Shown here one piece after another: positions 4,264 through 44,828 of a stretch of DNA of 64,000 nucleotides. A model generated the notes under the pieces. The model ran no database searches. It was not told the DNA's origin and saw nothing but the letters and a program-made list of their open reading frames with translations. This DNA comes from Candidatus Krumholzibacteriia bacterium (GTDB taxonomy: Bacteria; Krumholzibacteriota; Krumholzibacteriia; JAJRXK01). Numbering within the stretch: position 1 is the stretch's first letter; every line of letters begins with the position of its first letter. The position numbers were made by a program, and so were the translations under genes. The stretch covers positions 15,717-79,716 of the forward strand of contig DATFKK010000087.1 of NCBI GenBank assembly GCA_035268685.1, read 5' to 3'.

Positions 4264-6750
4264 GTGGTCCGCCACGGGAGGTCTTCGCTCCGTCACCGCC
4301 CGGGACCGCTTCCGGGCGGTGAGGGTGTCCGGTTCTGCAAACCGCTGGCAGGGAAACACTTGGCTCCAGAGATCCCTCAGGTGGACAACTCGACGGCGTC
4401 GCCCGCGGCGCGGCGGGTGCGGCCGGTCCGGCTCGGCGGAATCTGCCTCGCCGCCCTGTGGAGTCTGCCGGCCGTGATCGCCGTGCGGAGCGGATCGACG
4501 CCGGATCCCGCTCTGTTGGCCGTCGCCGGCGTGGCGTCGCTCGTCGTGGCGGGTCTCGCGCTCGGCTGGAAGCGGTCCGCGGAGACGGGCCGCGCCGCCG
4601 AGTTCCGCGTGGCCGCCCTCTCCCGTGAACTCGCCGCGGCCCGCGATGCGGCGCGGCTGTCCGACGAGCGCCTGGCCGAACGCAGTCAGGAGCTTTCGAC
4701 CGAACTCCTCCGGGCCCGCCGGGAGCTCGAACGCTTCGAGCGGCAGGACCGTCGCAAGACCGACCTGCTCGGATCCTTCGGAGACTCGGTCCGCACCCCG
4801 ATGCACCGTCTGTTGACCGCGGTCGACGCCATGATCGCCGAGGAGGACGACGAAACCCGCGCCGAAGGTCTGTCGGAGCTGCGACGTCAGGCCGTGACAC
4901 TGCTCGGCTTCTCAGACGACGTCATCGACTTCTCCGAGATCGAGGCCGACCGCCTTTCGCTGCGCGAGGAATCCTTCGCCGTGCGCGATCTCGTGGAAGA
5001 GGCCCTGGACTGCTTCGGCGGGAGCCACGACCGCTGCCACGAGTCGTCCTACGTCCTCGATCCGGATCTGCCCGAGACGCTGCGCGCCGATCCGAACCGT
5101 GTGCGCCAGGTACTGTGTCGGTTGCTCGTCCGGGCGGCATCGTGCACCGACGAGGACGAGCTGCACGTCCGGGTCGAGCCCGTCGATTCCGCGGACGGTT
5201 CGCGTCGAGTACGCTTCGCCGTCTTCCCTCCGTCCGTGGACGGAGCTTCGGAGGACTTCGACACCGAGGCCGGGTCGAGGGAACCGGAGGACGGCGTTCC
5301 GACCGGAGCCGGACTCGGAGTCGCGATCTCCCGCCGTCTCGTCGAGCGGATGGGTGGCAGCCTGGGTTCGGGGCCCGACACCCACGACGGCTTCCCCTTC
5401 TGGTTCACGATCGGCCTGCGGCCGGGCGATGCGGTGAAGACCAGGCGCGTCGAGAAGGAACTCAGCGGTGCGCGGGTGCTGGTGATCAGCGCGTCGAGCC
5501 ACGTGCGTCTCATGTTGATCCAGCAGACACGGCAGTGGAAGTGCGTACCTTCGGCGTCGGCGGACGGCCCGAGTGCGCTGGCCGCGTTGCGAGCGGCGGC
5601 GACGGCCGGAGATCCGTTCCGGGCCGTCGTCCTCGACGTCGACCTCCCGGGAGCATCGGGCGTGCAGCTCGCCGAGAGCGTGCGGGCCGACAGCACCTTC
5701 GGTGGACCGGCGGTCCTGATCATGGCGTCCGGGAGCGACGGGGCGGCGCGCGCCGAGATCGACGCCGCCGGACTTCCGAGGCCGATTCCCAAGCCTGTGC
5801 GTCACGAAGTCCTGCGGGAACAATTGCTGCGGGTGTTGCGGCAGCGGAGTGCACACCCGGCGCCGAGCCACGTCGACGACGCCGTCGAGCGCATCGCTCC
5901 GGCGGTGCAGGCCGCGGCGGCGGACGCCGCGTCGGACTCCGACGACCGTGCATGCACGCGGGACGGGCGGATCCTGGTGGTCGACGACAATCCCGTGAAT
6001 CGCCGCGTGGCCACGCTGATCCTGCAGCGGGCCGGCTACACGCCCGAGATCGCCGAAGACGGCCAGATCGCGGTCGAGAAGATCGAAGCCGAAGAGACCT
6101 TCGATCTGATCCTCATGGACGTGCACATGCCGCGGCTGAACGGCTTCGAAGCCACGGCCCGCATCCGCGCGCTCGACGACGATCGCAAGGTGACGCCGAT
6201 CGTGGCCATGACCGCCAGCGCCATGTCGGGCGACGCGGAACGATGCCTGGAGGCAGGGATGGACGGTTACGTCAGCAAGCCGGTCAAGGCCGATGCCCTG
6301 GTCGCGGTCGTCGAGAGCTGGATTCCCGACACCGATCCCGACGACGAGGTCGTCGACGCGCCCGTGAGCGCGAAGTCGAAGGACCCTCTGGACGACGAGG
6401 TCACGCTCGAACCGGGGGGCCTCGACGAACTGGTGTCCCTGGCCGGCGACGACACGTCGATGCTCGACGAGCTCGTGCAGACCTTCTTCGAGACGGCAGC
6501 GGAGCACCTCGAGACCATGCGGACGTCGTACGCGGACGGCGATCTGCGTCGGGTGGCCGAGTCGGCCCACGCTCTACGCGGAAGCGCGGGAACTCTCGGT
6601 GCGCGTCGACTGCACGGGATGAGCGGTCGGCTGGAGGATCGCGCGCGCGAATCCGGAGCGATGGTCGACGTCGGGGAACTCGACGCGATCGAGGCCGAGA
6701 TCACGTCCGTACGCGCGGCGATCGAGCGACGCCTGGGCGCGCAGTCCTGA
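4264..6750 (+). CDS. hybrid sensor histidine kinase/response regulator (HisKA-HATPase-REC-REC-Hpt)
   Basis: N-terminal TM segment. HisKA region GDSVRTPMHRLL. HATPase_c region. Two receiver domains (ILVVDDNPVNR...LMDVHMP...YVSKP). C-terminal Hpt (HALRGSAGTLGA). Start codon uncertain (GTG 4264 or a downstream GTG/TTG). Confidence 0.8.
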   Translation: MVRHGRSSLRHRPGPLPGGEGVRFCKPLAGKHLAPEIPQVDNSTASPAARRVRPVRLGGICLAALWSLPAVIAVRSGSTPDPALLAVAGVASLVVAGLALGWKRSAETGRAAEFRVAALSRELAAARDAARLSDERLAERSQELSTELLRARRELERFERQDRRKTDLLGSFGDSVRTPMHRLLTAVDAMIAEEDDETRAEGLSELRRQAVTLLGFSDDVIDFSEIEADRLSLREESFAVRDLVEEALDCFGGSHDRCHESSYVLDPDLPETLRADPNRVRQVLCRLLVRAASCTDEDELHVRVEPVDSADGSRRVRFAVFPPSVDGASEDFDTEAGSREPEDGVPTGAGLGVAISRRLVERMGGSLGSGPDTHDGFPFWFTIGLRPGDAVKTRRVEKELSGARVLVISASSHVRLMLIQQTRQWKCVPSASADGPSALAALRAAATAGDPFRAVVLDVDLPGASGVQLAESVRADSTFGGPAVLIMASGSDGAARAEIDAAGLPRPIPKPVRHEVLREQLLRVLRQRSAHPAPSHVDDAVERIAPAVQAAAADAASDSDDRACTRDGRILVVDDNPVNRRVATLILQRAGYTPEIAEDGQIAVEKIEAEETFDLILMDVHMPRLNGFEATARIRALDDDRKVTPIVAMTASAMSGDAERCLEAGMDGYVSKPVKADALVAVVESWIPDTDPDDEVVDAPVSAKSKDPLDDEVTLEPGGLDELVSLAGDDTSMLDELVQTFFETAAEHLETMRTSYADGDLRRVAESAHALRGSAGTLGARRLHGMSGRLEDRARESGAMVDVGELDAIEAEITSVRAAIERRLGAQS

Positions 6751-9494: not shown

Positions 9495-10420
9495 ACGATG
9501 CATCGTCGTCCGCGGGAACCGATCCGGCCACCGCTCCGCACTTCCTCGACGCCGAGCCCTCGACCCTGGAAGAGGCCGATGCCGCGGTGCTCTCGGTTCC
9601 CTACGAGGGTACGGTCAGCTTCGGCACCGGTACGGCGCGGGGTCCGGCAGCCGTGATCGGAGCGGGTCCCCACCTCGAAACCTTCGACGAGGAACTCGAG
9701 TGGGAATCCGACGGAGCGCTGAAGGTGGTCACGCTCCGGCCGATCGAGCCCGCGAGGGGCGAGCGCCCCGAGAGTTTCATGGGCCGGCTCAAGAACGCGT
9801 GCATGGGCTTCGGACTGGGGCCTCCGTTCCCGTTGACCTTCGGGGGCGAGCACTCGATCACTCCGGCCGTGCTCGACGGGATCCGAGACGACCTCTCCGA
9901 CGTCACGGTCGTCCAGATCGACGCCCACGCCGACCTGCGCGACAGCTATCACGGAAGCCGGAACAACCACGCCTGCGCCATGCGCCGGGTGCTCGATCTG
10001 GGCGTGAGGCGATTGATCGCGGTGGGAATCCGTAGCTGCACGGCCGAGGAGTTCGCGATGGCTCGCGACGACGGTCGCATCGACACGCTCTATGCGCACC
10101 AGATGCACGACGCGTCGCGTTGGCAGCACCTGCTCGACGATCTACGGGCTCTGGACGGGCCCGTCTACCTGACCGTCGACATCGACGGGCTCGACTGCAC
10201 GCTCTGCCCGGGCACCGGCACCCCGCAGCCCGGTGGCCTGAGCTGGGAACAGGCGCTCGACGTGGTACGTGCCACCGTGCGGGAGAGCAATGCCGAGGTC
10301 TTCGGGGCCGACGTGGTCGAGGTGGCGCCCATGGGGCAGAGCCAGGTGAACGAGATGGTCGCCGCCAAGCTCGGATTCAAGATCCTGGCGTACCGTTTCG
10401 CGCCCGGCCGGGGGCGTTGA
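9491..10420 (+). CDS. speB: agmatinase (ureohydrolase family)
   Basis: Arginase/agmatinase motifs GGEHSIT, IDAHADLRD, DIDGLD, PGTGTPQPGGLS. Start overlaps the upstream stop (ATGA). The track ORF 8762..10420 is over-extended. Confidence 0.8.
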   Translation: MNDASSSAGTDPATAPHFLDAEPSTLEEADAAVLSVPYEGTVSFGTGTARGPAAVIGAGPHLETFDEELEWESDGALKVVTLRPIEPARGERPESFMGRLKNACMGFGLGPPFPLTFGGEHSITPAVLDGIRDDLSDVTVVQIDAHADLRDSYHGSRNNHACAMRRVLDLGVRRLIAVGIRSCTAEEFAMARDDGRIDTLYAHQMHDASRWQHLLDDLRALDGPVYLTVDIDGLDCTLCPGTGTPQPGGLSWEQALDVVRATVRESNAEVFGADVVEVAPMGQSQVNEMVAAKLGFKILAYRFAPGRGR

Positions 10421-36258: not shown

Positions 36259-36363
36259 GCGTCCCAGGGTAGCACGAAGTCTCCCGAGCGCCGCTTGCGT
36301 GGCCGGCCTCGGGTGGGCATCCTCTCGACTCGTCCGCCACGACCCCACTCCCGAGGTACGTCC

Positions 36364-37263
36364 GTGATCGATCCCACCGCGCTCGCCCCCGATGGCTGGA
36401 CCCTGGGCGGCGACTTCGCCGATCGCCTCCACGCCGCCACGTCGCATCTGCACGAGAGGGGAATCACGGGAGGCCGTGTCGGGCTCGTCCTCGGCAGCGG
36501 TCTCGGCGGTCTGATCGACCGCACCGAGGCGGTGGCGTCGGTCCCCTTCGCGGGCATCCCGGGATTCCACACGGCCTCGGTGGCGGGCCACTCGGGCCGT
36601 GTGGTCCAGGCCCGGCGCGGCGGGGCGGAGTTCGTCGTGCTACAGGGTCGACTGCACGCCTACGAAGGACTGGACCTGAGCAGCGTGATCCTGCCGGTGG
36701 TCGTGCTGCGGGCGCTGGGCTGCGCCACGATCGTCCTCACCAACGCCGCCGGCGGTCTGCAACCCGACATGCGTGCGGGTGACGTGGCCGTGCTCACCGG
36801 CCTGATCGACCTGCACCTGCGGGACCCGCTGCGTGGAATCCTCGTCCCCGACGGTGCCGTTCCCTCGGGACTGGCCGCCCGCGGGGCGACCCCCGGCCCG
36901 GTCTTCGACCCCGGTCTGGCCGCACAGTTGCGCGCGGTGGCCGCCGAAGAGCGCATCGCGCCGCACACGGGAACCTACGTGTCGCTGTGGGGTCCGAACT
37001 ACGAGAGTCCCGTCGAGATCGGTCTGTTGCGCCGTCTGGGTGGCGTGGCGGTCGGGATGTCCACCGGGCCCGAAGCGGTGGCGGTGCGGGCACTGGGCGC
37101 GCGGGTGGCGGGGGTGTCGCTGATCACCAACGTCGCGGTCGAGGCCGGCGGTGGTGTGGTCACGCACGACGAGGTCGTCGAGGTGGGAGCCGCCCGGCGC
37201 GACGCCATGGAGGCCCTGTTGCTGTCGACGGTCGACCGGCTCGCGGTCGTGGAGGACGCATGA
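36364..37263 (+). CDS. purine nucleoside phosphorylase (PNP-I family)
   Basis: VGLVLGSGLGGL, VGMSTGPEAVAV, LITNVAVEAGGG motifs. GTG start 36364. The track ORF is over-extended upstream. Confidence 0.8.
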   Translation: MIDPTALAPDGWTLGGDFADRLHAATSHLHERGITGGRVGLVLGSGLGGLIDRTEAVASVPFAGIPGFHTASVAGHSGRVVQARRGGAEFVVLQGRLHAYEGLDLSSVILPVVVLRALGCATIVLTNAAGGLQPDMRAGDVAVLTGLIDLHLRDPLRGILVPDGAVPSGLAARGATPGPVFDPGLAAQLRAVAAEERIAPHTGTYVSLWGPNYESPVEIGLLRRLGGVAVGMSTGPEAVAVRALGARVAGVSLITNVAVEAGGGVVTHDEVVEVGAARRDAMEALLLSTVDRLAVVEDA

Positions 37264-38675
37264 TCCGGAACCTGCTCGCCGTCCTGCTGTCCGCACTGGT
37301 CGTGGTTCCGGCAGCGCGGGCCCAGGAGCGTCCGAACCTCCTGATCCTGTCGATCGACACCCTGCGTGCCGACCACGTGTCGTGCTACGGATACGAACGA
37401 CCCACGACCCCGTCGATCGATCTGGTCGCCGCCAACGGAACCCGCTTCGCCGCGGCACGGTCGGTGGCGCCGTGGACCCTGCCGAGCTTCGCGAGCATGT
37501 TCACCGGTCGCTACCCGACCCGCCACGGGGCGGGGGCATCGGGTCCGGTGCGCAACGTCGCGACCGAGCCGCCGCGCATGCTCGCCGCGCGGGTCCCAAC
37601 GTTGGCCGAGGTCCTGCGCACGGCCGGCTACCGCACGCACGCGATCACCTCGAATCCCTACCTGCGTCTCGGTCCCGTCCGTGGCTTCGACGATCCGGTG
37701 GTCAAGGCGGTCCGTGCCGACCGGATCGGTGCGCTGAGCCGCGAATGGCTCGGTCGCCACGGCGACGACCGGCCGTGGTACCTGTGGGTCCACTTCAACG
37801 ATCCGCACGAGCCGACACGGGCCGCCGACGCGCAGCTCCGCGCGATCGGCGTCGACGAGGCCGTGCTCGACGACCCGCACCGTGGCGCACTGGAGCGCTG
37901 GGGCGACCGCGACGCCGGCACCTACCTCGGCAATCGTGCGAGCGAAGCCGAGGTCCGCGACATGCTGCGGACCAAGATCGCCCTCTACGACGCGACCATC
38001 CGGCAGGTCGATCTGGAGATCGGTCTGATCCTGGAGCTGCTCCAGCGGCGGGACCTGCTGCGCGACACGCTCGTGGTGATCGTCGCCGACCACGGCGAGG
38101 AGTTCCTCGACCACGCCGAGGAGGGTAGGGCCTGGAACCACGACCCGCGCGGCATCTGGGGGATCGGGCACGGCCACACGCTGTTCGAGGAGCAGCTCCA
38201 CGTTCCCCTGGTCCTCATGGGTCCGCGCGTCCGACCGAACCAGGTGATCGCCGAGCAGTTCCCGCTGACCGAACTGATGCCGACCGTGCTCGGCCTGCTC
38301 CGCGTGCGCGCACCCGAGGACATCGACGGCGAGAACCGCGTCGAGTGGATGCGCGACCGCCAGCGCGCGCCGATTCCCATGGCCGCCGAGAGCCTGGCCT
38401 ACGGCCCCGACTGGGTCGCGTGGATCGACGGCCGGTACAAGCTGATCGCCGATCGCCTGGGGCACGTCCAGGCCTTCTACGATCTCGAGCGCGATCCCTA
38501 CGAGCTCCACGATCTCGTGGCGCAGGTCGACAGCCTCGATGCCGGGATTCGTCTGCAGGAACGTCTGCGGGACTGGAACGACCGGGTGATCGCCGAGGCA
38601 CCCCCGGCCACCGCGGCCGGTGAACTCACCGACGAGATGCGCGAGGGTCTGCGCAGTCTGGGCTACGTGCAGTAG
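37260..38675 (+). CDS. sulfatase-like hydrolase/transferase (alkaline-phosphatase superfamily), secreted
   Basis: Signal peptide MIRNLLAVLLSALVVVPAARA. NLLILSIDTLRADHVSCYGY and VIVADHGEEF motifs. ATGA overlap with the PNP stop. Confidence 0.7.
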   Translation: MIRNLLAVLLSALVVVPAARAQERPNLLILSIDTLRADHVSCYGYERPTTPSIDLVAANGTRFAAARSVAPWTLPSFASMFTGRYPTRHGAGASGPVRNVATEPPRMLAARVPTLAEVLRTAGYRTHAITSNPYLRLGPVRGFDDPVVKAVRADRIGALSREWLGRHGDDRPWYLWVHFNDPHEPTRAADAQLRAIGVDEAVLDDPHRGALERWGDRDAGTYLGNRASEAEVRDMLRTKIALYDATIRQVDLEIGLILELLQRRDLLRDTLVVIVADHGEEFLDHAEEGRAWNHDPRGIWGIGHGHTLFEEQLHVPLVLMGPRVRPNQVIAEQFPLTELMPTVLGLLRVRAPEDIDGENRVEWMRDRQRAPIPMAAESLAYGPDWVAWIDGRYKLIADRLGHVQAFYDLERDPYELHDLVAQVDSLDAGIRLQERLRDWNDRVIAEAPPATAAGELTDEMREGLRSLGYVQ

Positions 38676-38679
38676 TCGA

Positions 38680-39066
38680 TCACACCGCGACGGGGTGCAG
38701 CTCACGGCTCAGGTGATCGAACAGGCGCTGCGCTTCGTCCATGTGGAAGGGCTTGCGCAGGCACCGGTGCGCCCCGCGCTGGAAGGCACGGTCGACCAGC
38801 CCGCTCTCCGAGAAGCTGCTCGCGGCGACGATCCGGGTGTTCCCGGCCAGGTCGAGCATGAACTCGCTCAGGGCGAAGGCGTCGACCTCGCCGGGCAGGT
38901 GCAGGTCGAGGATCACGACCTCGGGCTGCTCGCGTTTGAAACACTCGATCGCGTCGGATGCGCGTTCCACGGGTGGGAGGACCCGGAATCCCCTGGACTC
39001 GGCGGCCGCGATCAGCAGGTGCCGGTAGGTCGGATGGTCGTCGACGATCAGGACCCGGGTCTTCAT
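38680..39066 (-). CDS. stand-alone response-regulator receiver (CheY-like)
   Basis: MKTRVLIVDDHPTYRHLL...VVILDLHLPGE...CLRKPF. No output domain. Confidence 0.65.
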   Translation of the reverse strand: MKTRVLIVDDHPTYRHLLIAAAESRGFRVLPPVERASDAIECFKREQPEVVILDLHLPGEVDAFALSEFMLDLAGNTRIVAASSFSESGLVDRAFQRGAHRCLRKPFHMDEAQRLFDHLSRELHPVAV

Positions 39067-39279
39067 CGGAGGCGCGCTCCGCGCGGCGGGAGGGGCGACG
39101 GGACGTGTCGCCTGCGGCCCGAGCAACCAGGATGCCCGGAGCTACCCGGCCGTCACGGGGCGCGTCGCGGAACGTCGAGGAGTGAGTCGCCGGCCGGCGC
39201 GCGGAAGAGGGGACCGGGTCCGCTGCATTCCGCAACTTCCGGCGCCGGACCGGCACGGACGACTCGCACGGCGGGTTCC

Positions 39280-40362
39280 TCAGTTGCCGCCCTCGACGGT
39301 GCGGAGCTCCAGGGAGTCGAGGGTCATCGACGGCGGGCGGTAGCGCAGCAGACAACCCACACCACCCACGCGGTCGAGGCGATCGTTGCCGCCGACGAAC
39401 TCGACGGTGCAGCCGCGGCGCTGGGCAGCACGCAGGATCGGCTCGCGGCCGTCGGTGTCGTAGTCGTGCGCCATGATCAAGAGGTCGGCCTGGTCGTGCT
39501 CGAGCGCGGCGAGGCATCGGCGTGCACCCACCACGGCGAGCCCGTCGCGGTACAAGGCGTCGAAGAGAGCGTCGACCAACGACAGCGACTCGCGCTGTTC
39601 CTCCTCGACGAAGGTGGACAGTGTCGCGGTGACGACGTCCTCCACCGACGTCCGGCCGCTGGCCGGGAGCTGGTCGATCACGATCTCGCGGAGTCGCCCG
39701 GGAAGAGCATCGCGGACCTGCGCCAGGAGCCGCGGCACGCCGGCGAGCACCAGGTGCTGGTAGCCGCCGGTGTCCGTCCGTGCCTCGAGGACGCCGATCA
39801 TCTCCTTCACGAAACGCTGTGTGCGATCGCGTCGATGATTGCGGTAGTGCTCCCGGGTCCACTCGCGGCCGACACGACGGCGGATCTCGGGCCGCTCCTT
39901 CCAGATCTGCCGGGTCACCGCGCCCAGGTGTACCTCGAGGATCCGCATGCTGTCCTCGGTGCAGAGCAACACCACGTAGCGATGGAAGGCATCCTTGAGT
40001 GCGCACAGGTCGTACACGCTGGGCAAGGTGTCGACGACGACCGCCTCGCGGGACATCTCGACACGGAACTCCAGCGGCAGGAAGACGGGGTCACCGCCTC
40101 CGCGGGCGTAGACGACGGCGCCGCGGGTGTCGGCGGCCAGGTCGTCGTCGATCCAGCGCTCGATCCGGGTCCGGGCTTCGTCCAGGCTGTGCCGGCGATC
40201 GGCGGGAAGGTCCGTCAGGACGGGCCGGATCCGCTGCTGCAGGCGCTGGCGGATCGCCGACCGACCCCCGGTGCAGTCGAGAACGGCGGTGATGAGGTGG
40301 TCGTCGGTTTCGTCGAGCGTTGCGATGTGGCGCAACGACTGCTCGAGGTCTTCGATTCTCAT
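39280..40362 (-). CDS. bacterial aeRF1/Pelota-like release-factor-family (baeRF) protein
   Basis: C-terminal eRF1-domain-3-like GLAVVGARRCLAALEHDQADLLIMAHDYD ... GCTVEFVGGNDRLDRVGGVGCLLRY (compare the eRF1/Pelota GGIAAILRY end motif). Central VVYARGGGDPVFLPLEF. Confidence 0.55.
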   Translation of the reverse strand: MRIEDLEQSLRHIATLDETDDHLITAVLDCTGGRSAIRQRLQQRIRPVLTDLPADRRHSLDEARTRIERWIDDDLAADTRGAVVYARGGGDPVFLPLEFRVEMSREAVVVDTLPSVYDLCALKDAFHRYVVLLCTEDSMRILEVHLGAVTRQIWKERPEIRRRVGREWTREHYRNHRRDRTQRFVKEMIGVLEARTDTGGYQHLVLAGVPRLLAQVRDALPGRLREIVIDQLPASGRTSVEDVVTATLSTFVEEEQRESLSLVDALFDALYRDGLAVVGARRCLAALEHDQADLLIMAHDYDTDGREPILRAAQRRGCTVEFVGGNDRLDRVGGVGCLLRYRPPSMTLDSLELRTVEGGN

Positions 40363-40375
40363 GGGTCCTCCCCGA

Positions 40376-40735
40376 TCAGCTCTCGGCCGCGGGAGGTTCC
40401 TGGACGGTCACCGCACGTGGGCGGCGCTCGAAGAGTCGTCGCCGGGTGAGCTCGTCGCGCACACGGCGTGCGGCCCGGCGGGAAGCAACGGCGGCCGAGG
40501 CCTCCGCATCTACGCCCTGCGCCTCAACGTAGAGCTTCGGCCCCGACCGCAGGTCCACTTCGACGAGGCATCGATGATCGATGCCGCCTCGGGGACCGTT
40601 CTCGTCGTTCACCTTCACGGTGACGGTCGAGATCCGATCGGCGAAACGTGCCAACGCGAACTGGATGCGCCGTGTCACGATCTCCTGCTGCCGTCCGTCC
40701 GACGAAACCCCGTGGATGTGCAGGTCGATCCGCAT
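40376..40735 (-). CDS. HPF/RaiA/YfiA-like ribosome hibernation factor (short form)
   Basis: MRIDLHIHGVSSDG..RIQFALARFADRISTVTVKVNDENGP...LVEVDLRSGPKLYVEAQGVD parallels the HPF pattern (M.I.I.G..V.....R...KL..L.R.F.RI..V.V....E). Confidence 0.55.
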   Translation of the reverse strand: MRIDLHIHGVSSDGRQQEIVTRRIQFALARFADRISTVTVKVNDENGPRGGIDHRCLVEVDLRSGPKLYVEAQGVDAEASAAVASRRAARRVRDELTRRRLFERRPRAVTVQEPPAAES

Positions 40736-40835
40736 GGCCTCCGCCCCGTGGGGGCGCCCCTGACGGGACGTCGCGCCGGCGACCGTTCCGCCGTCGCAAG
40801 GGCAGGATAGTGCGGATCCTTCTTCGCGGTAGTAG

Positions 40836-40890
40836 ATAATTCGACACCGAATGATAGGTCTGGCCAATAGTCGAACGAGAGGGCGACGGC
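40836..40890 (+). promoter_or_regulatory. divergent promoter/LysR-box region (TTCGAC-N24-GTCGAA palindrome, AT-rich)
   Basis: Locally AT-rich. Inverted repeat ttcgac...gtcgaa lies between the divergent LysR and HPF-baeRF genes. Confidence 0.3.
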
Positions 40891-40891
40891 G

Positions 40892-41797
40892 ATGCTCGAG
40901 CTCAACTACCAGCACCTGTACTACTTCTGGGTGGTGGTGCGCGAGGGGACGGTGACCGCGGCGAGTCGACGCGTCCACCGTTCCCAACCCACCCTCACCG
41001 CCCAGATCCGTGCGCTCGAGGAGCAACTCGGCGAGCCGTTGTTCGAGCGTCAGGGGCGGCGCCTCGTGCCCACGACCACCGGTGAGACCGTGTACCGCTA
41101 CGCCGACGAGATCTTCTCGCTCGGTGCCGAGCTGGTCGACGCGGTGCGCGGCCGGACGGGCGACGTGCGGCAGCGCCTGCACGTGGGGGTGAGCGACGTG
41201 TTGCCGAAGTTGATCGCGCACCGTCTGCTGACGCCCGCGCTGCGCATGGAATTCCCGGTGAGCCTGGTGTGCACCGAAGGTCCTCCGCGCGAGCTGCTGG
41301 GACGACTGGCCGTCCACGAACTCGACCTGGTGCTGACCGACGCTCCCATTGGTGCCGATGTGCACGTGCGAGCGTACAACCACCCCCTGGGTGAGTGCGG
41401 CGTCACGGTCTTCGGCACGCGGGATCTGGTCGATGCTTTCGGGGCGGGCTTCCCGGCGTCGTTGGACGGGGCGCCGTTCCTGTTGCCGGTCGACGGGTCG
41501 ATGCTCCGCCGCGGTCTGCAGCGGTGGTTCGACACCCACAACCTCGCCGTCGACGTGGTGGGCGAGTTCGCCGACAGCGCGCTCATGAAGACCTTCGCGC
41601 AGCAGGGCGTCGGGCTCATGGCCGGGCCTTCGGTGATCGAGTCCGAGATCTGCGGACAGTACGGGGTCGGGGTCGTGGGGCGAACCGGCGAAGTCCGCGA
41701 ACGCTTCTACGCGATCTCGGTCGAGCGCAAGGTCACGCACCCGGCGGTGCTGGCCGTCACCGAGCGCGCGCGCGAGGAGCTGTTCGCCGCGTCGTGA
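40892..41797 (+). CDS. LysR-family transcriptional regulator
   Basis: N-terminal HTH LNYQHLYYFWVVVREGTVTAASRRVHRSQPTLTAQIRALEEQLGEPLFER plus a LysR substrate-binding domain. Confidence 0.85.
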   Translation: MLELNYQHLYYFWVVVREGTVTAASRRVHRSQPTLTAQIRALEEQLGEPLFERQGRRLVPTTTGETVYRYADEIFSLGAELVDAVRGRTGDVRQRLHVGVSDVLPKLIAHRLLTPALRMEFPVSLVCTEGPPRELLGRLAVHELDLVLTDAPIGADVHVRAYNHPLGECGVTVFGTRDLVDAFGAGFPASLDGAPFLLPVDGSMLRRGLQRWFDTHNLAVDVVGEFADSALMKTFAQQGVGLMAGPSVIESEICGQYGVGVVGRTGEVRERFYAISVERKVTHPAVLAVTERAREELFAAS

Positions 41798-41807
41798 CCG
41801 GTCGGTC

Positions 41808-43046
41808 TCAGAGCATGATCCCTGCGATCGCCGCGGTCATGCTGGAGGCCAGCGCGCCGCCCATCATGGCCCGCAGGCCGAGGCGCGAGAGGTCGTGTCG
41901 ACGGTTCGGGGCCAGGGCACCGATCCCGCCGATCTGGATCGAGATCGAACTGAAGTTGGCGAAGCCGCACAGCGAGTAGGTGGCGATGGTGATCGCCCGC
42001 TCGCTCATGGCACCCTCGGCGACCAGACGACCCAGCTCGGCGAAGGCCACGAACTCGTTGATCGCCAGCTTCTGCCCCAGCAATCCGGCGACGGCGAAGC
42101 AGTCGGCGGCGGGCACGCCCAGGCTCCAGGCCACCGGCCAGAGCACGTAGCCGAAGATCTCCTGCAACGAGGCCGGCCACGCGGTCAGGCCGACGGCGGC
42201 CATCCACGAGGCCAGCGAACCGAGGAGTGCGTTCACGAGTGCCACGAGGGCGATGAAGGCCAGCAGCATGGCGCCGACGTTCAGGGCGAGCTTCAGGCCC
42301 TGCGATGCGCCATCGGCGGCGGCGTCGATCACGTTCACGGTCTCGCGTTCGTCCCGGATCTCGACGCCGCCCTTGGTCAGGCTGGTCTCGGTCTCGGGGA
42401 TGAGGATCCGCGCCATCACCAGCGCCGCCGGCGCACTCATCACGCTCGCGGCCAGGAGGTGCCCGGCGTCGACACCGAAGGCGATGTAGCCGGCCAGGAC
42501 GCTGCCCGCGATGGTGGCCATGCCGCCCGTCATCAGGACCATGAGTTCGGCGCGGGTCATCCGGGCGATGTAGGGGCGCACCACGAGGGGAGCCTCGGTC
42601 TGGCCGATGAACACGTTCGCCGCCACCGACAGCGACTCCGAACCGCTCACTCCCATGAGCCGTTTCATGCCCCGCGCCAGGAACAGCACCAGACGTTGCA
42701 TGATGCCGAGGTGGTACAGGACGCCCATCAGCGCGCTGAAGAACACGATCACCGGCAGCACACGGAAGGCGAAGACGAAGCCGACCGGACCGTCCGCCTC
42801 CATGAGGGGGCCGAACAGGAAACGGCTGCCGTCCTCGGTGAACGACAGCAGGGTGACCGCTCCGTCTCGGATCAGCTCGAGGATCCGCTGCCCCGGTGGG
42901 AACAGATGTACGAACGCAGCGAAGATGATCTGCAGGGTCAATCCGGCGCCGACGAGGCGCCAGTCGATGCGGCGACGATTGGTGCTGAAGAGGACGGCGA
43001 TGCCCACCAGGACACCCAGCCCGAGCACGCTGACGAGACGTTCCAT
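41808..43046 (-). CDS. nupC: NupC/CNT-family concentrative nucleoside transporter
   Basis: CNT-family layout and motifs (GQTEAPLVVRPYI, ATYSLCGFANFSSI). ATG 43046 (MERLVSVLG). Confidence 0.8.
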   Translation of the reverse strand: MERLVSVLGLGVLVGIAVLFSTNRRRIDWRLVGAGLTLQIIFAAFVHLFPPGQRILELIRDGAVTLLSFTEDGSRFLFGPLMEADGPVGFVFAFRVLPVIVFFSALMGVLYHLGIMQRLVLFLARGMKRLMGVSGSESLSVAANVFIGQTEAPLVVRPYIARMTRAELMVLMTGGMATIAGSVLAGYIAFGVDAGHLLAASVMSAPAALVMARILIPETETSLTKGGVEIRDERETVNVIDAAADGASQGLKLALNVGAMLLAFIALVALVNALLGSLASWMAAVGLTAWPASLQEIFGYVLWPVAWSLGVPAADCFAVAGLLGQKLAINEFVAFAELGRLVAEGAMSERAITIATYSLCGFANFSSISIQIGGIGALAPNRRHDLSRLGLRAMMGGALASSMTAAIAGIML

Positions 43047-43168
43047 CCGGCCAGAGTCCGCCAAGCTCGTGCGGGCGTCAAGCACCCGCGTTGACGACCG
43101 CCACCCGGCTGCGTAGCATGGCGGGAATCGTGCCGCCGCCCGAACCGCTCACCGCGGAGATCGAAACC

Positions 43169-43849
43169 ATGGACCACGCCTCCGTCCAACCCGTCGTCAT
43201 CGGTATCGCCGGAGGCTCGGGCAGTGGGAAGACCACGGTGGCCCTGCGGGTCCAGGAGCGTTTCCCGCAGCGGACCGTCGAGATCATCCACCACGACAGT
43301 TACTACCACGATCACCCCAACCTCGACGACGAATCCCGGGCCGCGATCAACTACGATCACCCCGCGGCCTTCGAGACCTCTCTGCTCGTCTCCCACCTCG
43401 ACGATCTACGGGCCGGGCGCGAGGTCGAGCGCCCGATCTACGACTACTCCACGCATCGTCGTCGCTCCGAGTCCGAGGTCGTCCACCCGGCCGACATCGT
43501 GTTCGTCGAGGGGATCCTCGTGCTCGAGAACGCGGATCTACGCGCCCGCATGGACATCCGGCTCTTCGTCGACGTCGACAGCGACGAGCGTTTCATCCGT
43601 CGCCTGGGTCGCGACATGGAGGAGCGCGGCCGGTCGATCGGATCGGTCATCGAACAGTACCGCGACACGGTGCGTCCCATGCACCGGCAGTTCGTCGCCC
43701 CGAGCAAACGCTGGGCCCATGTGATCATTCCCGAGGGCGGCCACAACGTGGTCGCCATCGACATGATCTGCGCCAAGATCCACGACGTGCTGCGGCAGCG
43801 TGGACGTGCCGAAGGCACACCCGCCGGCCGTGAAGGAGTCTCCCCGTGA
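43169..43849 (+). CDS. udk: uridine kinase
   Basis: P-loop VVIGIAGGSGSGKTT. Udk motifs HDSYYHD, NYDHPAAFE, DIVFVEGIL. Start ATG 43169; an alternative upstream start exists. Confidence 0.8.
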   Translation: MDHASVQPVVIGIAGGSGSGKTTVALRVQERFPQRTVEIIHHDSYYHDHPNLDDESRAAINYDHPAAFETSLLVSHLDDLRAGREVERPIYDYSTHRRRSESEVVHPADIVFVEGILVLENADLRARMDIRLFVDVDSDERFIRRLGRDMEERGRSIGSVIEQYRDTVRPMHRQFVAPSKRWAHVIIPEGGHNVVAIDMICAKIHDVLRQRGRAEGTPAGREGVSP

Positions 43850-44397
43850 GCCACGACGACCTCGAGATCGTCGAGCGCGACCCGCTCATCGAGCGCGTGC
43901 TCGTCTCGTCCGACGACATCCAACGCCGGGTCGCCGAGCTCGGTCGCGAGATCAGTGTGGCCTACCAGGGACGCACGCCGATCCTGGTCAGCATCCTGAA
44001 GGGAGGCGTGGTCTTCCTGGCCGATCTCATGCGGCGGATCAGTGTGCATCACGAAATCGACTTCATGTCGATCAGCAGTTACCAGGGACGGCAGAGCACG
44101 GGCGTCGTGAAGATCAACATGGACCTCAAGGGTTCGATCTCCGAGCGCGACGTCCTGATCGTCGAGGACATCGTCGACACGGGCTACACGCTCGACTACC
44201 TGCAGGAGATCCTTTGGGCGCGACGCCCGCGGTCGCTCGAAGTGTGCTCGCTGTTGAACAAGGCGGACGCCCGCCGCAAGGAGGTCTCGATCGACTACGT
44301 CGGCTTCGACATCCCCGACGAATTCGTGATCGGCTACGGGCTGGACTACGACGAGAAGTACCGGAATCTGCCGTTCATCGCGGTGATGAAGGGCTGA
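43846..44397 (+). CDS. hpt: hypoxanthine(-guanine) phosphoribosyltransferase
   Basis: PRPP-binding VLIVEDIVDTGYTL. HPRT N-terminal pattern. GTGA overlap with the udk stop. Confidence 0.85.
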   Translation: MSHDDLEIVERDPLIERVLVSSDDIQRRVAELGREISVAYQGRTPILVSILKGGVVFLADLMRRISVHHEIDFMSISSYQGRQSTGVVKINMDLKGSISERDVLIVEDIVDTGYTLDYLQEILWARRPRSLEVCSLLNKADARRKEVSIDYVGFDIPDEFVIGYGLDYDEKYRNLPFIAVMKG

Positions 44398-44474: not shown

Positions 44475-44582
44475 CTTGCATCGGCCGGTCGGCATCCTTA
44501 ACTGTCGGCGTCCGCGCGATCCGTGACCCCGCCCGGACTCCCCGTCCACCTCCCACTCAACTCGAGCCCCGGAGTTGAACCC

Positions 44583-44828
44583 ATGGATCACGAGCTCGAC
44601 CCCCGCCTCCTGCTCGCGGCCGACTACGACGACGACGACTACGAGGACGACTTCGAGGACGACACGACCGAGGACGAGGATCTCGACGCGGTCGCGTTCG
44701 ACGCCGACTTCGACGAGGACGCGGTGGTGGACGACGAAGACGATTCCGAAGACCTCGACGACGACGACGACGACGACTTCGACGACGACTACGACGACGA
44801 CGACGATTTCGACGACGACGAGTACTGA
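44583..44828 (+). CDS. highly acidic (Asp/Glu-rich) small protein
   Basis: MDHELDPRLLLAADYDDDDYEDDFEDD...DDDEY, 81 aa of which >60% are D/E. GGAG Shine-Dalgarno. Follows the terminator and a weak promoter-like TTGCAT-N16-TTAACT. Confidence 0.4.
   Translation: MDHELDPRLLLAADYDDDDYEDDFEDDTTEDEDLDAVAFDADFDEDAVVDDEDDSEDLDDDDDDDFDDDYDDDDDFDDDEY

Follow-up and report, generated by a model that had tools for sequence, protein, structure and literature searches.

The closest described counterpart of the locus analysed here is the Balon system, whose description dates only from 2024. Balon and RaiA co-occupy one ribosome, Balon enters the A site independently of mRNA, Balon genes most frequently adjoin raiA, and the homologues Msmeg1130 and Rv2629 are translation inhibitors (Helena-Bueno et al., Nature 2024, PMC10901736). 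The same paper describes hypoxia induction for the mycobacterial homologues, citing work on DosR. A conserved neighbourhood of HPF and baeRF (bacterial aeRF1-like) genes was already reported by Burroughs & Aravind in 2019 (PMC6514570). The pairing itself is therefore known and not a discovery, and with these two papers the statement in the original prediction that no functional link between HPF and bacterial aeRF1-like proteins had been described is wrong. In the case of E. coli, NhaR occupies the rmf promoter, is reported to bind the rsd promoter as well, and its deletion alters the formation of 100S ribosomes (PMC10003395). This deletion raises RMF; hence, NhaR there represses rather than activates a hibernation factor (PMC10003395).

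The window, a stretch of 64,000 nucleotides (64 kb) taken from an uncultured metagenome contig, contains the four genes listed below. All four sets of coordinates were reproduced when genes were called independently on the source contig; together with the Pfam domains, this confirms the four genes as first proposed.

40376..40735, minus strand: RaiA/HPF-type short hibernation factor, 119 aa, Pfam PF02482
39280..40362, minus strand: Balon-type bacterial aeRF1 homologue of baeRF family 10, 360 aa, without GGQ or NIKS
38680..39066, minus strand: stand-alone CheY-like receiver (REC), 128 aa, Response_reg 61.9 bits, ATG at 39066
40892..41797, plus strand: NhaR-type LysR-family regulator, 301 aa, HTH_1 and LysR_substrate domains, divergent from the HPF-baeRF pair

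Between the HPF stop codon (40376-40378) and the baeRF ATG (40362) lies a 13-nt spacer with a GGAGG ribosome-binding site; the two genes had been thought to overlap at this junction, an arrangement (4 nt) that exists in the relatives L082 and L083. HPF-like genes flank the baeRF relatives in about 16 of 80 genomes, and also in L082 and L083, so the adjacency is not peculiar to this genome; both the HPF-baeRF and the LysR-baeRF adjacency are far from chance. The conserved adjacency and an aeRF1/Balon-like structure prediction support the earlier proposal of a regulated ribosome-hibernation module. We consider it likely that the HPF-like and Balon-type genes constitute one NhaR-linked hibernation operon, whose factors are able to share one ribosome. 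The two genes would be transcribed together as a single operon encoding two hibernation factors. Family and fold of the four proteins, the kept gene order and the conserved non-coding elements are observations, whereas ribosome binding, inhibition of translation, co-transcription and NhaR control with its signal are predictions drawn from homologues. Compared with the short HPF/YfiA(RaiA) factors encoded in the rpoN-hpf cluster, the HPF-like protein is encoded here beside a Balon-type gene, and a RaiA/HPF-type gene likewise adjoins in the Balon system.

The HPF-like protein is only borderline for Pfam PF02482 (24.4 bits, barely over the cut-off of 23.7), and its family profile matches A. baumannii 7m4z_v (6e-15) and P. 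urativorans RaiA 8rd8_D (3e-7). These are its two best solved relatives, the former a 70S-bound factor and the latter determined in complex with a ribosome that also carried Balon. The AF2 model (pLDDT 84) has the topology E-H-E-E-E-H and superimposes on HPF/RaiA/pY structures in Foldseek with TM scores of 0.7-0.87. Strands beta2 and beta3 are joined by an invariant loop, D-x-NGPRGG-x-D-x-x-C, which corresponds to the loop marking the Moraxellaceae RaiA proteins; this extra beta2-beta3 loop is common to the P. urativorans and A. baumannii RaiA-type proteins, whereas the insertion is absent in E. coli HPF. Helix alpha2 (residues 77-103) presents a basic face (R86, R87, R90, R91, R93 and R98-R100), in which R87 and R90 are nearly invariant across the family; this face is the predicted contact to 16S rRNA, as in the HPF/RaiA family. 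By analogy, the HPF-like protein would be situated on the 30S subunit, in the path of mRNA and tRNA at the decoding region.

The neighbouring baeRF protein has baeRF_family10 (PF18854) as its best Pfam family, with 63.9 bits against a gathering cut-off of 27.1; Msmeg1130 (Balon) reaches 124.7 bits on the same model. A family profile built from 53 relatives has its best match in Msmeg1130 (8v9j_z) at 8e-14 and also matches Rv2629 at 5e-11, both over the full length, whereas aRF1 and Pelota are matched over the C-terminal half only, comprising the central and C-terminal domains. In hhalign, the protein aligns with Msmeg1130 over 335 columns with a probability of 97.7%. The AF2 model (pLDDT 82) displays a three-domain aeRF1-like architecture (N, middle and C), and the top Foldseek match is Balon 8v9j_z (4e-20), followed by aRF1/eRF1 and P. 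urativorans Balon 8rd8_B; the release-factor fold foreseen for this protein is thereby borne out. The GGVGCLLRY motif was also recognised correctly, but it occupies residues 333-341 and is not the extreme C-terminus of the protein. Nevertheless, the protein shares only about 18% identity with Msmeg1130, and its scores on the NCBIfam equivalog models fall far below the cut-offs (MSMEG_1130 family, 38.1 bits versus 480; Rv2629 family, 31.8 bits versus 320). By these scores, the protein is a distant relative and not an equivalog of the MSMEG_1130/Rv2629 families.

The overall fold and the C-terminal L7Ae-like domain with GG-x-x-x-LLRY/F are common to the baeRF protein, aeRF1 and Pelota/Dom34. Compared with aeRF1, both the NIKS stop-codon motif and the catalytic GGQ motif are missing: none of GGQ, NIKS or NIK occurs anywhere in the 360 residues, and NIKS is found in none of the 53 relatives. 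In this respect the protein resembles Balon (8RD8; Msmeg1130, 8V9J; Rv2629, 8V9K), in which the three-domain aeRF1 fold likewise lacks GGQ and NIKS. Furthermore, unlike the archaeal and eukaryotic aeRF1 genes, the baeRF gene is bacterial and coexists with a normal RF1/RF2 system (PMC6514570). Because it lacks GGQ, the Balon-type protein would be expected to block translation rather than to release the peptide.

An active rescue or release factor, entering stalled ribosomes and hydrolysing peptidyl-tRNA or splitting ribosomes in the manner of Pelota/Dom34 and with the HPF-like protein acting afterwards, would share the same fold and the C-terminal GGVGCLLRY of aRF1 and Pelota. Loop 147-180 is conserved and basic, which would suit such a factor, and family 10 is among the few bacterial baeRF families with a conserved catalytic-loop glutamine, which makes them possible hydrolases (PMC6514570). 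In the clade of the window's protein, however, the AGQ of Msmeg1130 is replaced by an invariant loop motif, GREWT-x-EHY-x-NHRRDR, and the Gln aligns in hhalign with a nearly invariant Arg (GREW), an alignment that is uncertain since the loop has a pLDDT below 50. The missing GGQ also speaks against catalysis. To our knowledge, Hbs1 and ABCE1, the partners of Pelota-type splitting, are absent from bacteria. Moreover, the experimentally tested proteins of family 10 (Msmeg1130 and Rv2629) act as hibernation factors (PMC10901736), and the nascent chain is left intact by P. urativorans Balon. We judge an active factor to be very improbable.

As a hibernation factor, the baeRF protein would differ from Msmeg1130 in several details. 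It has no His-Pro dipeptide, and the position of the Msmeg1130 IHPL, which may be the published HP motif, is occupied by YDL (clade consensus, Y-H/P-L). Msmeg1130 has about 33 extra residues in the C-domain, which we infer to be the published EF-Tu-binding beta-hairpin. There is no insert at this site in the baeRF protein, where the AF2 model contains only a short loop (residues 299-305), so the recruitment of EF-Tu may differ or be absent; half of the clade carries a CxxC...CxxC zinc ribbon at the same site. Such a divergent Balon clade, with its own invariant loop motif and no C-domain insert, could indicate which features of Balon are essential.

Downstream of the pair, the gap between baeRF and REC is 213 nt in the window, 1 nt shorter than first given, and ranges from 213 to 283 nt across the genomes keeping REC. 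The identification of the gene as a stand-alone CheY-like receiver stands, with the canonical acidic pocket (DD), the phospho-acceptor D54 and K104. Two conserved elements are located in the spacer:

39186..39256, minus strand: structured element of about 70 nt, a 19-bp outer helix around two invariant small hairpins
39123..39136, minus strand: sigma-54-type -24/-12 element GGCATCCTGGTTGC, 57 nt upstream of the REC ATG

The structured element begins 23 nt past the baeRF stop codon and is conserved in four genomes. RNAalifold assigns 28 pairs to it, 7 with compensatory changes; none of 500 shuffles equals it, and 97% of the cells pair, compared with at most 54% when the partners are slid. It has no match in Rfam, and its covariance model R1 retrieves only these four copies. 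In the sigma-54-type element, GGCATC and TTGC are invariant in the four genomes with variable flanks. It shares GG at -24, GC at -12 and the spacing with the sigma-54 (RpoN) consensus TGGCAC-N5-TTGC. Because GGCAY-N5-TTGC has two matches in the 64-kb window with 0.6 expected by chance, so that a chance match is not rare, the weight of the element rests on its conservation. No gene for an enhancer-binding protein is present in the 64-kb window.

Both elements argue for a separate REC transcript, and REC seems, from the alignment, to be served by a conserved sigma-54-type promoter of its own. The minus-strand trio, which had been taken as three consecutive genes of one unit, is thus probably two transcription units. 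A three-gene unit would be expected if REC were a working part that, once phosphorylated, binds the hibernation factors or the ribosome and gates hibernation. REC carries the phospho-acceptor residues for such a role and is kept directly downstream of baeRF in four genomes (the window, L001, L082 and L083), even where the next gene changes, as in L082 with oxaloacetate decarboxylase genes; in addition, non-orthologous single-domain REC genes flank the baeRF relatives in about 8 other loci. Against this, besides the spacer with its two elements, no REC orthologue occurs at the other 79 genome loci, and the literature examined on Balon and RaiA gave no receiver protein acting on either. A gating REC appears unlikely; within the hibernation-operon reading, the gene would be a lineage-specific companion under its own sigma-54-type promoter.

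On the opposite side of the pair, the divergent LysR protein scores 243.1 bits on the NCBIfam NhaR model (NF008284), above the cut-off of 219, and thus passes the model of E. coli NhaR, the LysR-type activator of nhaA in response to Na+ and alkaline pH. NhaR-type orthologues lie beside the baeRF relatives in 23 of 80 loci (that of the window and 22 others) with at least seven phylum labels, nearly always divergently. All 23 linked regulators have NhaR as their best match, and the linked orthologues score above 230 bits to the window's protein, whereas other LysR families score about 50-70 bits. Such a regulator beside a hibernation operon in many phyla is apparently a previously undescribed part of the system. 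In contrast to the mycobacterial Balon homologues and their hypoxia induction, the neighbouring regulator here is of the NhaR type. The E. coli work is a precedent for an influence of NhaR on a hibernation factor; there the effect on RMF is negative, and the putative regulated factor here is Balon/RaiA, not RMF. In related genomes, nhaA (PF06965, 489 bits) is situated within the cluster (L010, L012, L049 and L051) or follows the baeRF gene at a distance of 15-75 nt (L049, L051 and L067), whereas none is present in the 64-kb window.

The divergent NhaR-type regulator would control the HPF-baeRF pair via sites in the intergenic region, where the following features are located:

40736..40891: divergent control region, 156 bp, separating the start codons of the nhaR-like and HPF-like genes, with invariant blocks
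40833..40857, minus strand: operator-like box CTATCATTCGGTGTCGAATTATCTA, pattern CTAT-N3-TC-N8-AT-N2-TCTA, abutting the -35 position
40804..40809, minus strand: putative -10 hexamer TATCCT of the HPF-baeRF promoter, placed from the alignment
40840..40875: palindrome TTCGAC-N24-GTCGAA, arms at 40870-40875 and 40840-40845

The invariant blocks emerge from the alignment with five orthologous regions. The operator-like box is invariant in the window, in L001 and in a further four orthologous loci, of which at least three are from Planctomycetota. It occurs once in the 64-kb window even when one mismatch is allowed (0 expected), and among 81 loci at orthologous sites only, counts that refer to a pattern derived from the same sequences. 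The box is a candidate site of NhaR activation. TATCCT is aligned with TATAGT, TACAGT, TATAGA and TATATA in the orthologous regions, with an invariant TA. A generic sigma-70 scan gave no promoter, a blank that would fit an activator-dependent HPF-baeRF promoter.

The same blank can be read in favour of a regulator that is a mere neighbour, governing its own expression or that of a different gene, for instance the nucleoside transporter at 41808..43085, while stationary phase or stringent control switches the pair on. LysR regulators are the most abundant regulator family and frequently adjoin unrelated genes. The lack of nhaA in the window points the same way, as do the 57 of 80 related loci without an NhaR-type regulator in the flanking DNA, 12 of which have an upstream sigma-54 response regulator instead. 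Mere neighbourhood hardly accounts for the recurrence of the same, nearly always divergent orthologue by baeRF in 23 loci, a conserved cross-phylum pairing that involves baeRF and not the transporter, whose gene is convergent in the window. The boxes of the shared region are, furthermore, kept between lineages in which the baeRF proteins share only about 45% identity. We regard a mere neighbour as unlikely.

With the NhaR-type protein as the regulator of the hibernation operon, the likely signal for the pair would be ionic, namely Na+ or alkaline-pH stress. A wider reading, which we put forward tentatively and hold to be somewhat less probable than its negation, places the operon in the NhaR (Na+/alkaline-pH) regulon of many uncultured bacteria, with an ionic trigger, co-transcription of Balon and nhaA in some of them, and the sigma-54 receiver and the structured RNA as a second input in the lineage of the window. 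If this is true, it is ionic stress that parks the ribosomes, not starvation or hypoxia, and ion/pH homeostasis is tied to ribosome hibernation in environmental bacteria; the structured RNA at the 3' end of the operon would then be a previously undescribed element. The linkage of NhaR with Balon and the clustered nhaA in several genomes make this a concrete, testable hypothesis.

The palindrome in the shared region, noted in the original prediction, is present. As a conserved operator it does not hold, since the alignment reveals no conservation in the nearest relative, L001; the conserved element is instead the operator-like box. The palindrome is one of 13 inverted repeats of six to nine nt within 221 nt, and by this count it is, taken alone, no more than the chance expectation. 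Its left arm (TTCGAC) is positioned 16 nt upstream of the nhaR-like ATG, and a TTCG-N7-CGAA box of the T-N11-A type is located 9-17 nt from this ATG in seven orthologous loci.

The four genes of the original prediction (an HPF-like gene, an aeRF1-like or baeRF gene and a stand-alone receiver, REC, divergent from a LysR gene) are all present in the window, where the GC content is approximately 70%, and the source contig's own gene call concurs:

40892..41797, + strand: LysR gene (Pfam HTH_1 and LysR_substrate)
40376..40735, - strand: HPF-like gene, 119 aa (Pfam Ribosomal_S30AE, 24.4 bits, cut-off 23.7)
39280..40362, - strand: aeRF1-like gene, 360 aa (Pfam baeRF_family10, 63.9 bits, cut-off 27.1)
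38680..39066, - strand: receiver gene, 128 aa (Pfam Response_reg)

The HPF-like and aeRF1-like products thus exceed their Pfam cut-offs in the HMM check proposed earlier. The two genes had been read as overlapping; the aeRF1-like ATG is situated 13 nt past the HPF stop and is preceded by a GGAGG site, and a 4-nt overlap of hpf and baeRF exists in each of two added relatives, L082 and L083. Such an HPF–baeRF gene pair is already known as a kind, and the window adds another example. Burroughs & Aravind 2019 (PMC6514570) reported a conserved neighbourhood of several baeRF-1 families with HPF and proposed non-catalytic A-site blockers. Helena-Bueno et al. 2024 (PMC10901736) described the mRNA-independent A-site occupancy by the hibernation factor Balon, which can share one ribosome with RaiA, and the inhibition of translation by its mycobacterial relatives Msmeg1130 and Rv2629. 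In view of these papers, the statement that an HPF–baeRF link is undescribed no longer holds, and the ribosome-hibernation reading is supported, but by homology and with the literature preceding it. The linkage of an NhaR-type regulator and nhaA, a divergent insert-less Balon clade, and a REC gene specific to this lineage, along with its promoter and structured element, appear to be undescribed.

A PDB search with the single aeRF1-like sequence missed Balon and returned nothing useful, and the HPF-like protein was matched only weakly in this way; hence, profiles were needed for both proteins. A 53-relative aeRF1-like profile matches Msmeg1130 (8v9j_z, 8e-14) and Rv2629 (8v9k_z, 5e-11), both over the full length; the match of the same profile to aRF1 and Pelota is limited to the central and C-terminal domains. 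With hhalign, the aeRF1-like profile aligns to Msmeg1130 with 97.7% probability over 335 columns. Furthermore, Msmeg1130 scores 124.7 bits on Pfam baeRF_family10, so that the window protein shares its Pfam family with an experimentally validated hibernation factor. The AlphaFold model of 39280..40362 (pLDDT 82), corresponding to the structural check suggested beforehand, is Balon-like: Foldseek places Msmeg1130 best (4e-20), then aRF1/eRF1, then P. urativorans Balon (2e-14), with TM scores of approximately 0.45–0.5, a range in keeping with the flexibility of a three-domain protein.

By these homology criteria, the aeRF1-like protein is a distant member of the Balon family. Its identity to Msmeg1130 is approximately 18%, it falls far under the cut-offs of the NCBIfam hibernation-factor equivalogs, and it contains no His-Pro dipeptide. 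Neither GGQ nor NIKS was found in the 360 residues, and the alignment places a near-invariant Arg of the window clade, within the motif GREWT-x-EHY-x-NHRRDR, at the position of the Msmeg1130 AGQ. Msmeg1130 possesses an insert of approximately 33 residues in the C-domain, at a site where neither the window protein nor its closest relatives carry one. In about half of the baeRF clade (e.g., L005, L007, L010 and L039), the same site carries a CxxC...CxxC zinc-ribbon insert (columns 369–400 of A1, the alignment of baeRF relatives), and the insert and insert-less variants both accompany NhaR and HPF.

The HPF-like relatives share an invariant D-x-NGPRGG-x-D-x-x-C loop. The best matches of the family profile are ribosome-bound proteins, namely that of A. 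baumannii 7M4Z (6e-15) and chain D of 8RD8 (3e-7), followed by ordinary HPF and YfiA proteins; 8RD8 chain D is RaiA of P. urativorans, from a structure in which Balon occupies the same ribosome. According to a 2025 preprint, an extra loop in Moraxellaceae HPF anchors the protein to the decoding site, and non-canonical hpf genes often adjoin Balon genes. The HPF-like gene has a presumed 5' leader (40736..40800, - strand) that is GC-rich and contains overlapping palindromes (GGGGCGCCCC) immediately ahead of the ribosome-binding site; the palindromes are kept between the window and the related locus L001 and could form a translational control structure. In L036 (Haliangiales), two NGPxGG-type HPF-like genes (4534..4953 and 9695..10219) flank the baeRF and NhaR genes.

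Conservation of the neighbourhood was surveyed by scanning one genome per species for baeRF relatives; 252 were returned and 80 loci were kept, all from metagenome-assembled genomes of many phyla. An NGPRGG-type HPF-like gene lies near the baeRF gene in approximately 16 of the 80, mostly directly upstream on the same strand, so the predicted adjacency is conserved among related genomes. In 23 of the 80 loci, the sequence around the baeRF gene includes a LysR gene whose product matches the window regulator at more than 230 bits, nearly always in divergent orientation. For all 23 proteins the NCBIfam NhaR model is by far the best (lowest E-value 2e-81, versus at most 2e-27 for other LysR families), and the window protein itself exceeds the NhaR cut-off (243 vs 219 bits). 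The NhaR-linked loci bear at least seven phylum labels, including Planctomycetota, Acidobacteriota, Myxococcota, Thermodesulfobacteriota, Pseudomonadota, Binatia and Eisenbacteria. In three loci nhaA, the gene of a Na+/H+ antiporter (PF06965, 489 bits), begins 15–75 nt past the baeRF gene, and the nhaA loci yield '<nhaR baeRF> nhaA>' arrangements:

L049 6105..7316, L051 2597..3769, L067 2165..3577: nhaA, directly downstream
L010 1..1225, L012 8143..9348: nhaA, elsewhere in the cluster

None of the consulted papers brings up LysR or NhaR when discussing Balon. An E. coli study (PMC10003395) reported binding of NhaR to the rmf promoter, and more RMF and 100S ribosomes in an nhaR deletion mutant. 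Other recurring baeRF neighbours are TerC, tandem Usp, CNNM, an Ion_trans channel, HtpX, a P-type ATPase and an M50-CBS protease. Across the 80 loci the baeRF relatives sit in a mosaic 'stress island': upstream stands a regulator of the NhaR type or a sigma-54 response regulator, and downstream the neighbours just listed occur in combinations with a weak carbonic-anhydrase-like protein, Zn_ribbon_TFIIB, DUF302 and small REC proteins. Within the window, nhaA, TerC, Usp, HtpX, CNNM, a second HPF gene and a sigma-54 activator were sought and none was found.

The nhaR–hpf intergenic regions of the window, L001 and four more orthologous loci, at least three of the four from Planctomycetota, were aligned. 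At these loci, baeRF identity to the window is only approximately 40–47%. In the alignment, the blocks CTAT-N3-TC-N8-AT-N2-TCTA are invariant, and after them comes a -10-like hexamer that contains TA. The composite pattern is unique within the window even allowing one mismatch, and among 81 loci it occurs at orthologous sites only, a count that is not an independent test since the pattern was derived from the same sequences. A dyad of T-N11-A type, TTCG-N7-CGAA, precedes the regulator ATG by 9–17 nt in seven further NhaR-linked loci. The TTCGAC-N24-GTCGAA palindrome proposed for the window does exist, but 13 short inverted repeats, itself included, occur within 221 nt; with so many repeats and no conservation in L001, it was rejected as the operator. 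Its left arm stands at the dyad position, where the partner half-site is degenerate. Neither sigma-70 promoters (generic scan) nor intrinsic terminators were found in 38400..42000. The regulator would bind beside its own start, and also at a box directly adjoining the -35 position of an hpf promoter that depends on activation.

REC orthologues are missing from 79 of the 80 genome loci. L082 (baeRF identity 59%) and L083 (54%), found by exact-protein look-up, have the same order '<nhaR hpf> baeRF> REC>', the gene set beyond REC differing in L082. The spacer before REC, 213–283 nt long, is not neutral and contains:

39186..39256, - strand: 70-nt conserved structured element, 23 nt past the baeRF stop (also in L001 at 5240..5310, L082 and L083)
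39123..39136, - strand: sigma-54-type -24/-12 element GGCATCCTGGTTGC, 57 nt upstream of the REC start

In the latter, GGCATC-N4-TTGC is invariant in 4/4 genomes between variable flanks and fits the sigma-54 -24/-12 spacing; no enhancer-binding protein gene was found in the window. Within the structured element, GGCGCCGGAAGTTGC was considered as a sigma-54 site and rejected on inspection, the spacing being one base too long.

Folded by itself, the complete 213-nt spacer gives no significant RNA structure (z = -1.07); only the comparative analysis is informative. An invariant 27-nt core, GTTGCGGAATGCAGCGGACCCGGTCCC, folds as two small hairpins enclosed by a 19-bp helix, in which seven pairs show compensatory changes among the four genomes, a count attained in 0/500 shuffles. 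In 97% of cells the bases pair, a share that reaches 54% at most once partners are slid, and the G-U pairs are consistent with the sense strand only. Rfam gave no matches in 38000..42500 at E up to 1, and the covariance model R1 of the element found no further copies among 84 sources, so that it was seen in four genomes of the lineage only. Two metagenome scans for the core gave 0 and then 1 match (L084), the latter probably due to chance, adjoining a sulfatase without a baeRF or REC gene. Provisionally, from four sequences, the element may be the 3' end of the hpf–baeRF mRNA or an enhancer site. Given the conserved sigma-54-type site and the structured spacer, REC would most simply be a separate RpoN-dependent transcript.

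In addition, nucleoside-salvage genes are situated on both sides of the module (36358..37263, +; 41808..43085, -; 43091..43849, +; 43846..44397, +), comprising a purine nucleoside phosphorylase, a nucleoside transporter, a uridine-kinase-like gene and a phosphoribosyltransferase; synteny of the LysR-side transporter, kinase-like gene and phosphoribosyltransferase is kept in L082 and L083. Beyond them, a small ORF (44523..44828, +) encodes an extremely acidic, Asp/Glu-rich low-complexity product (...DDDDDDDFDDDYDDDDDFDDDEY), of which the source contig gene call has a 77-aa version.
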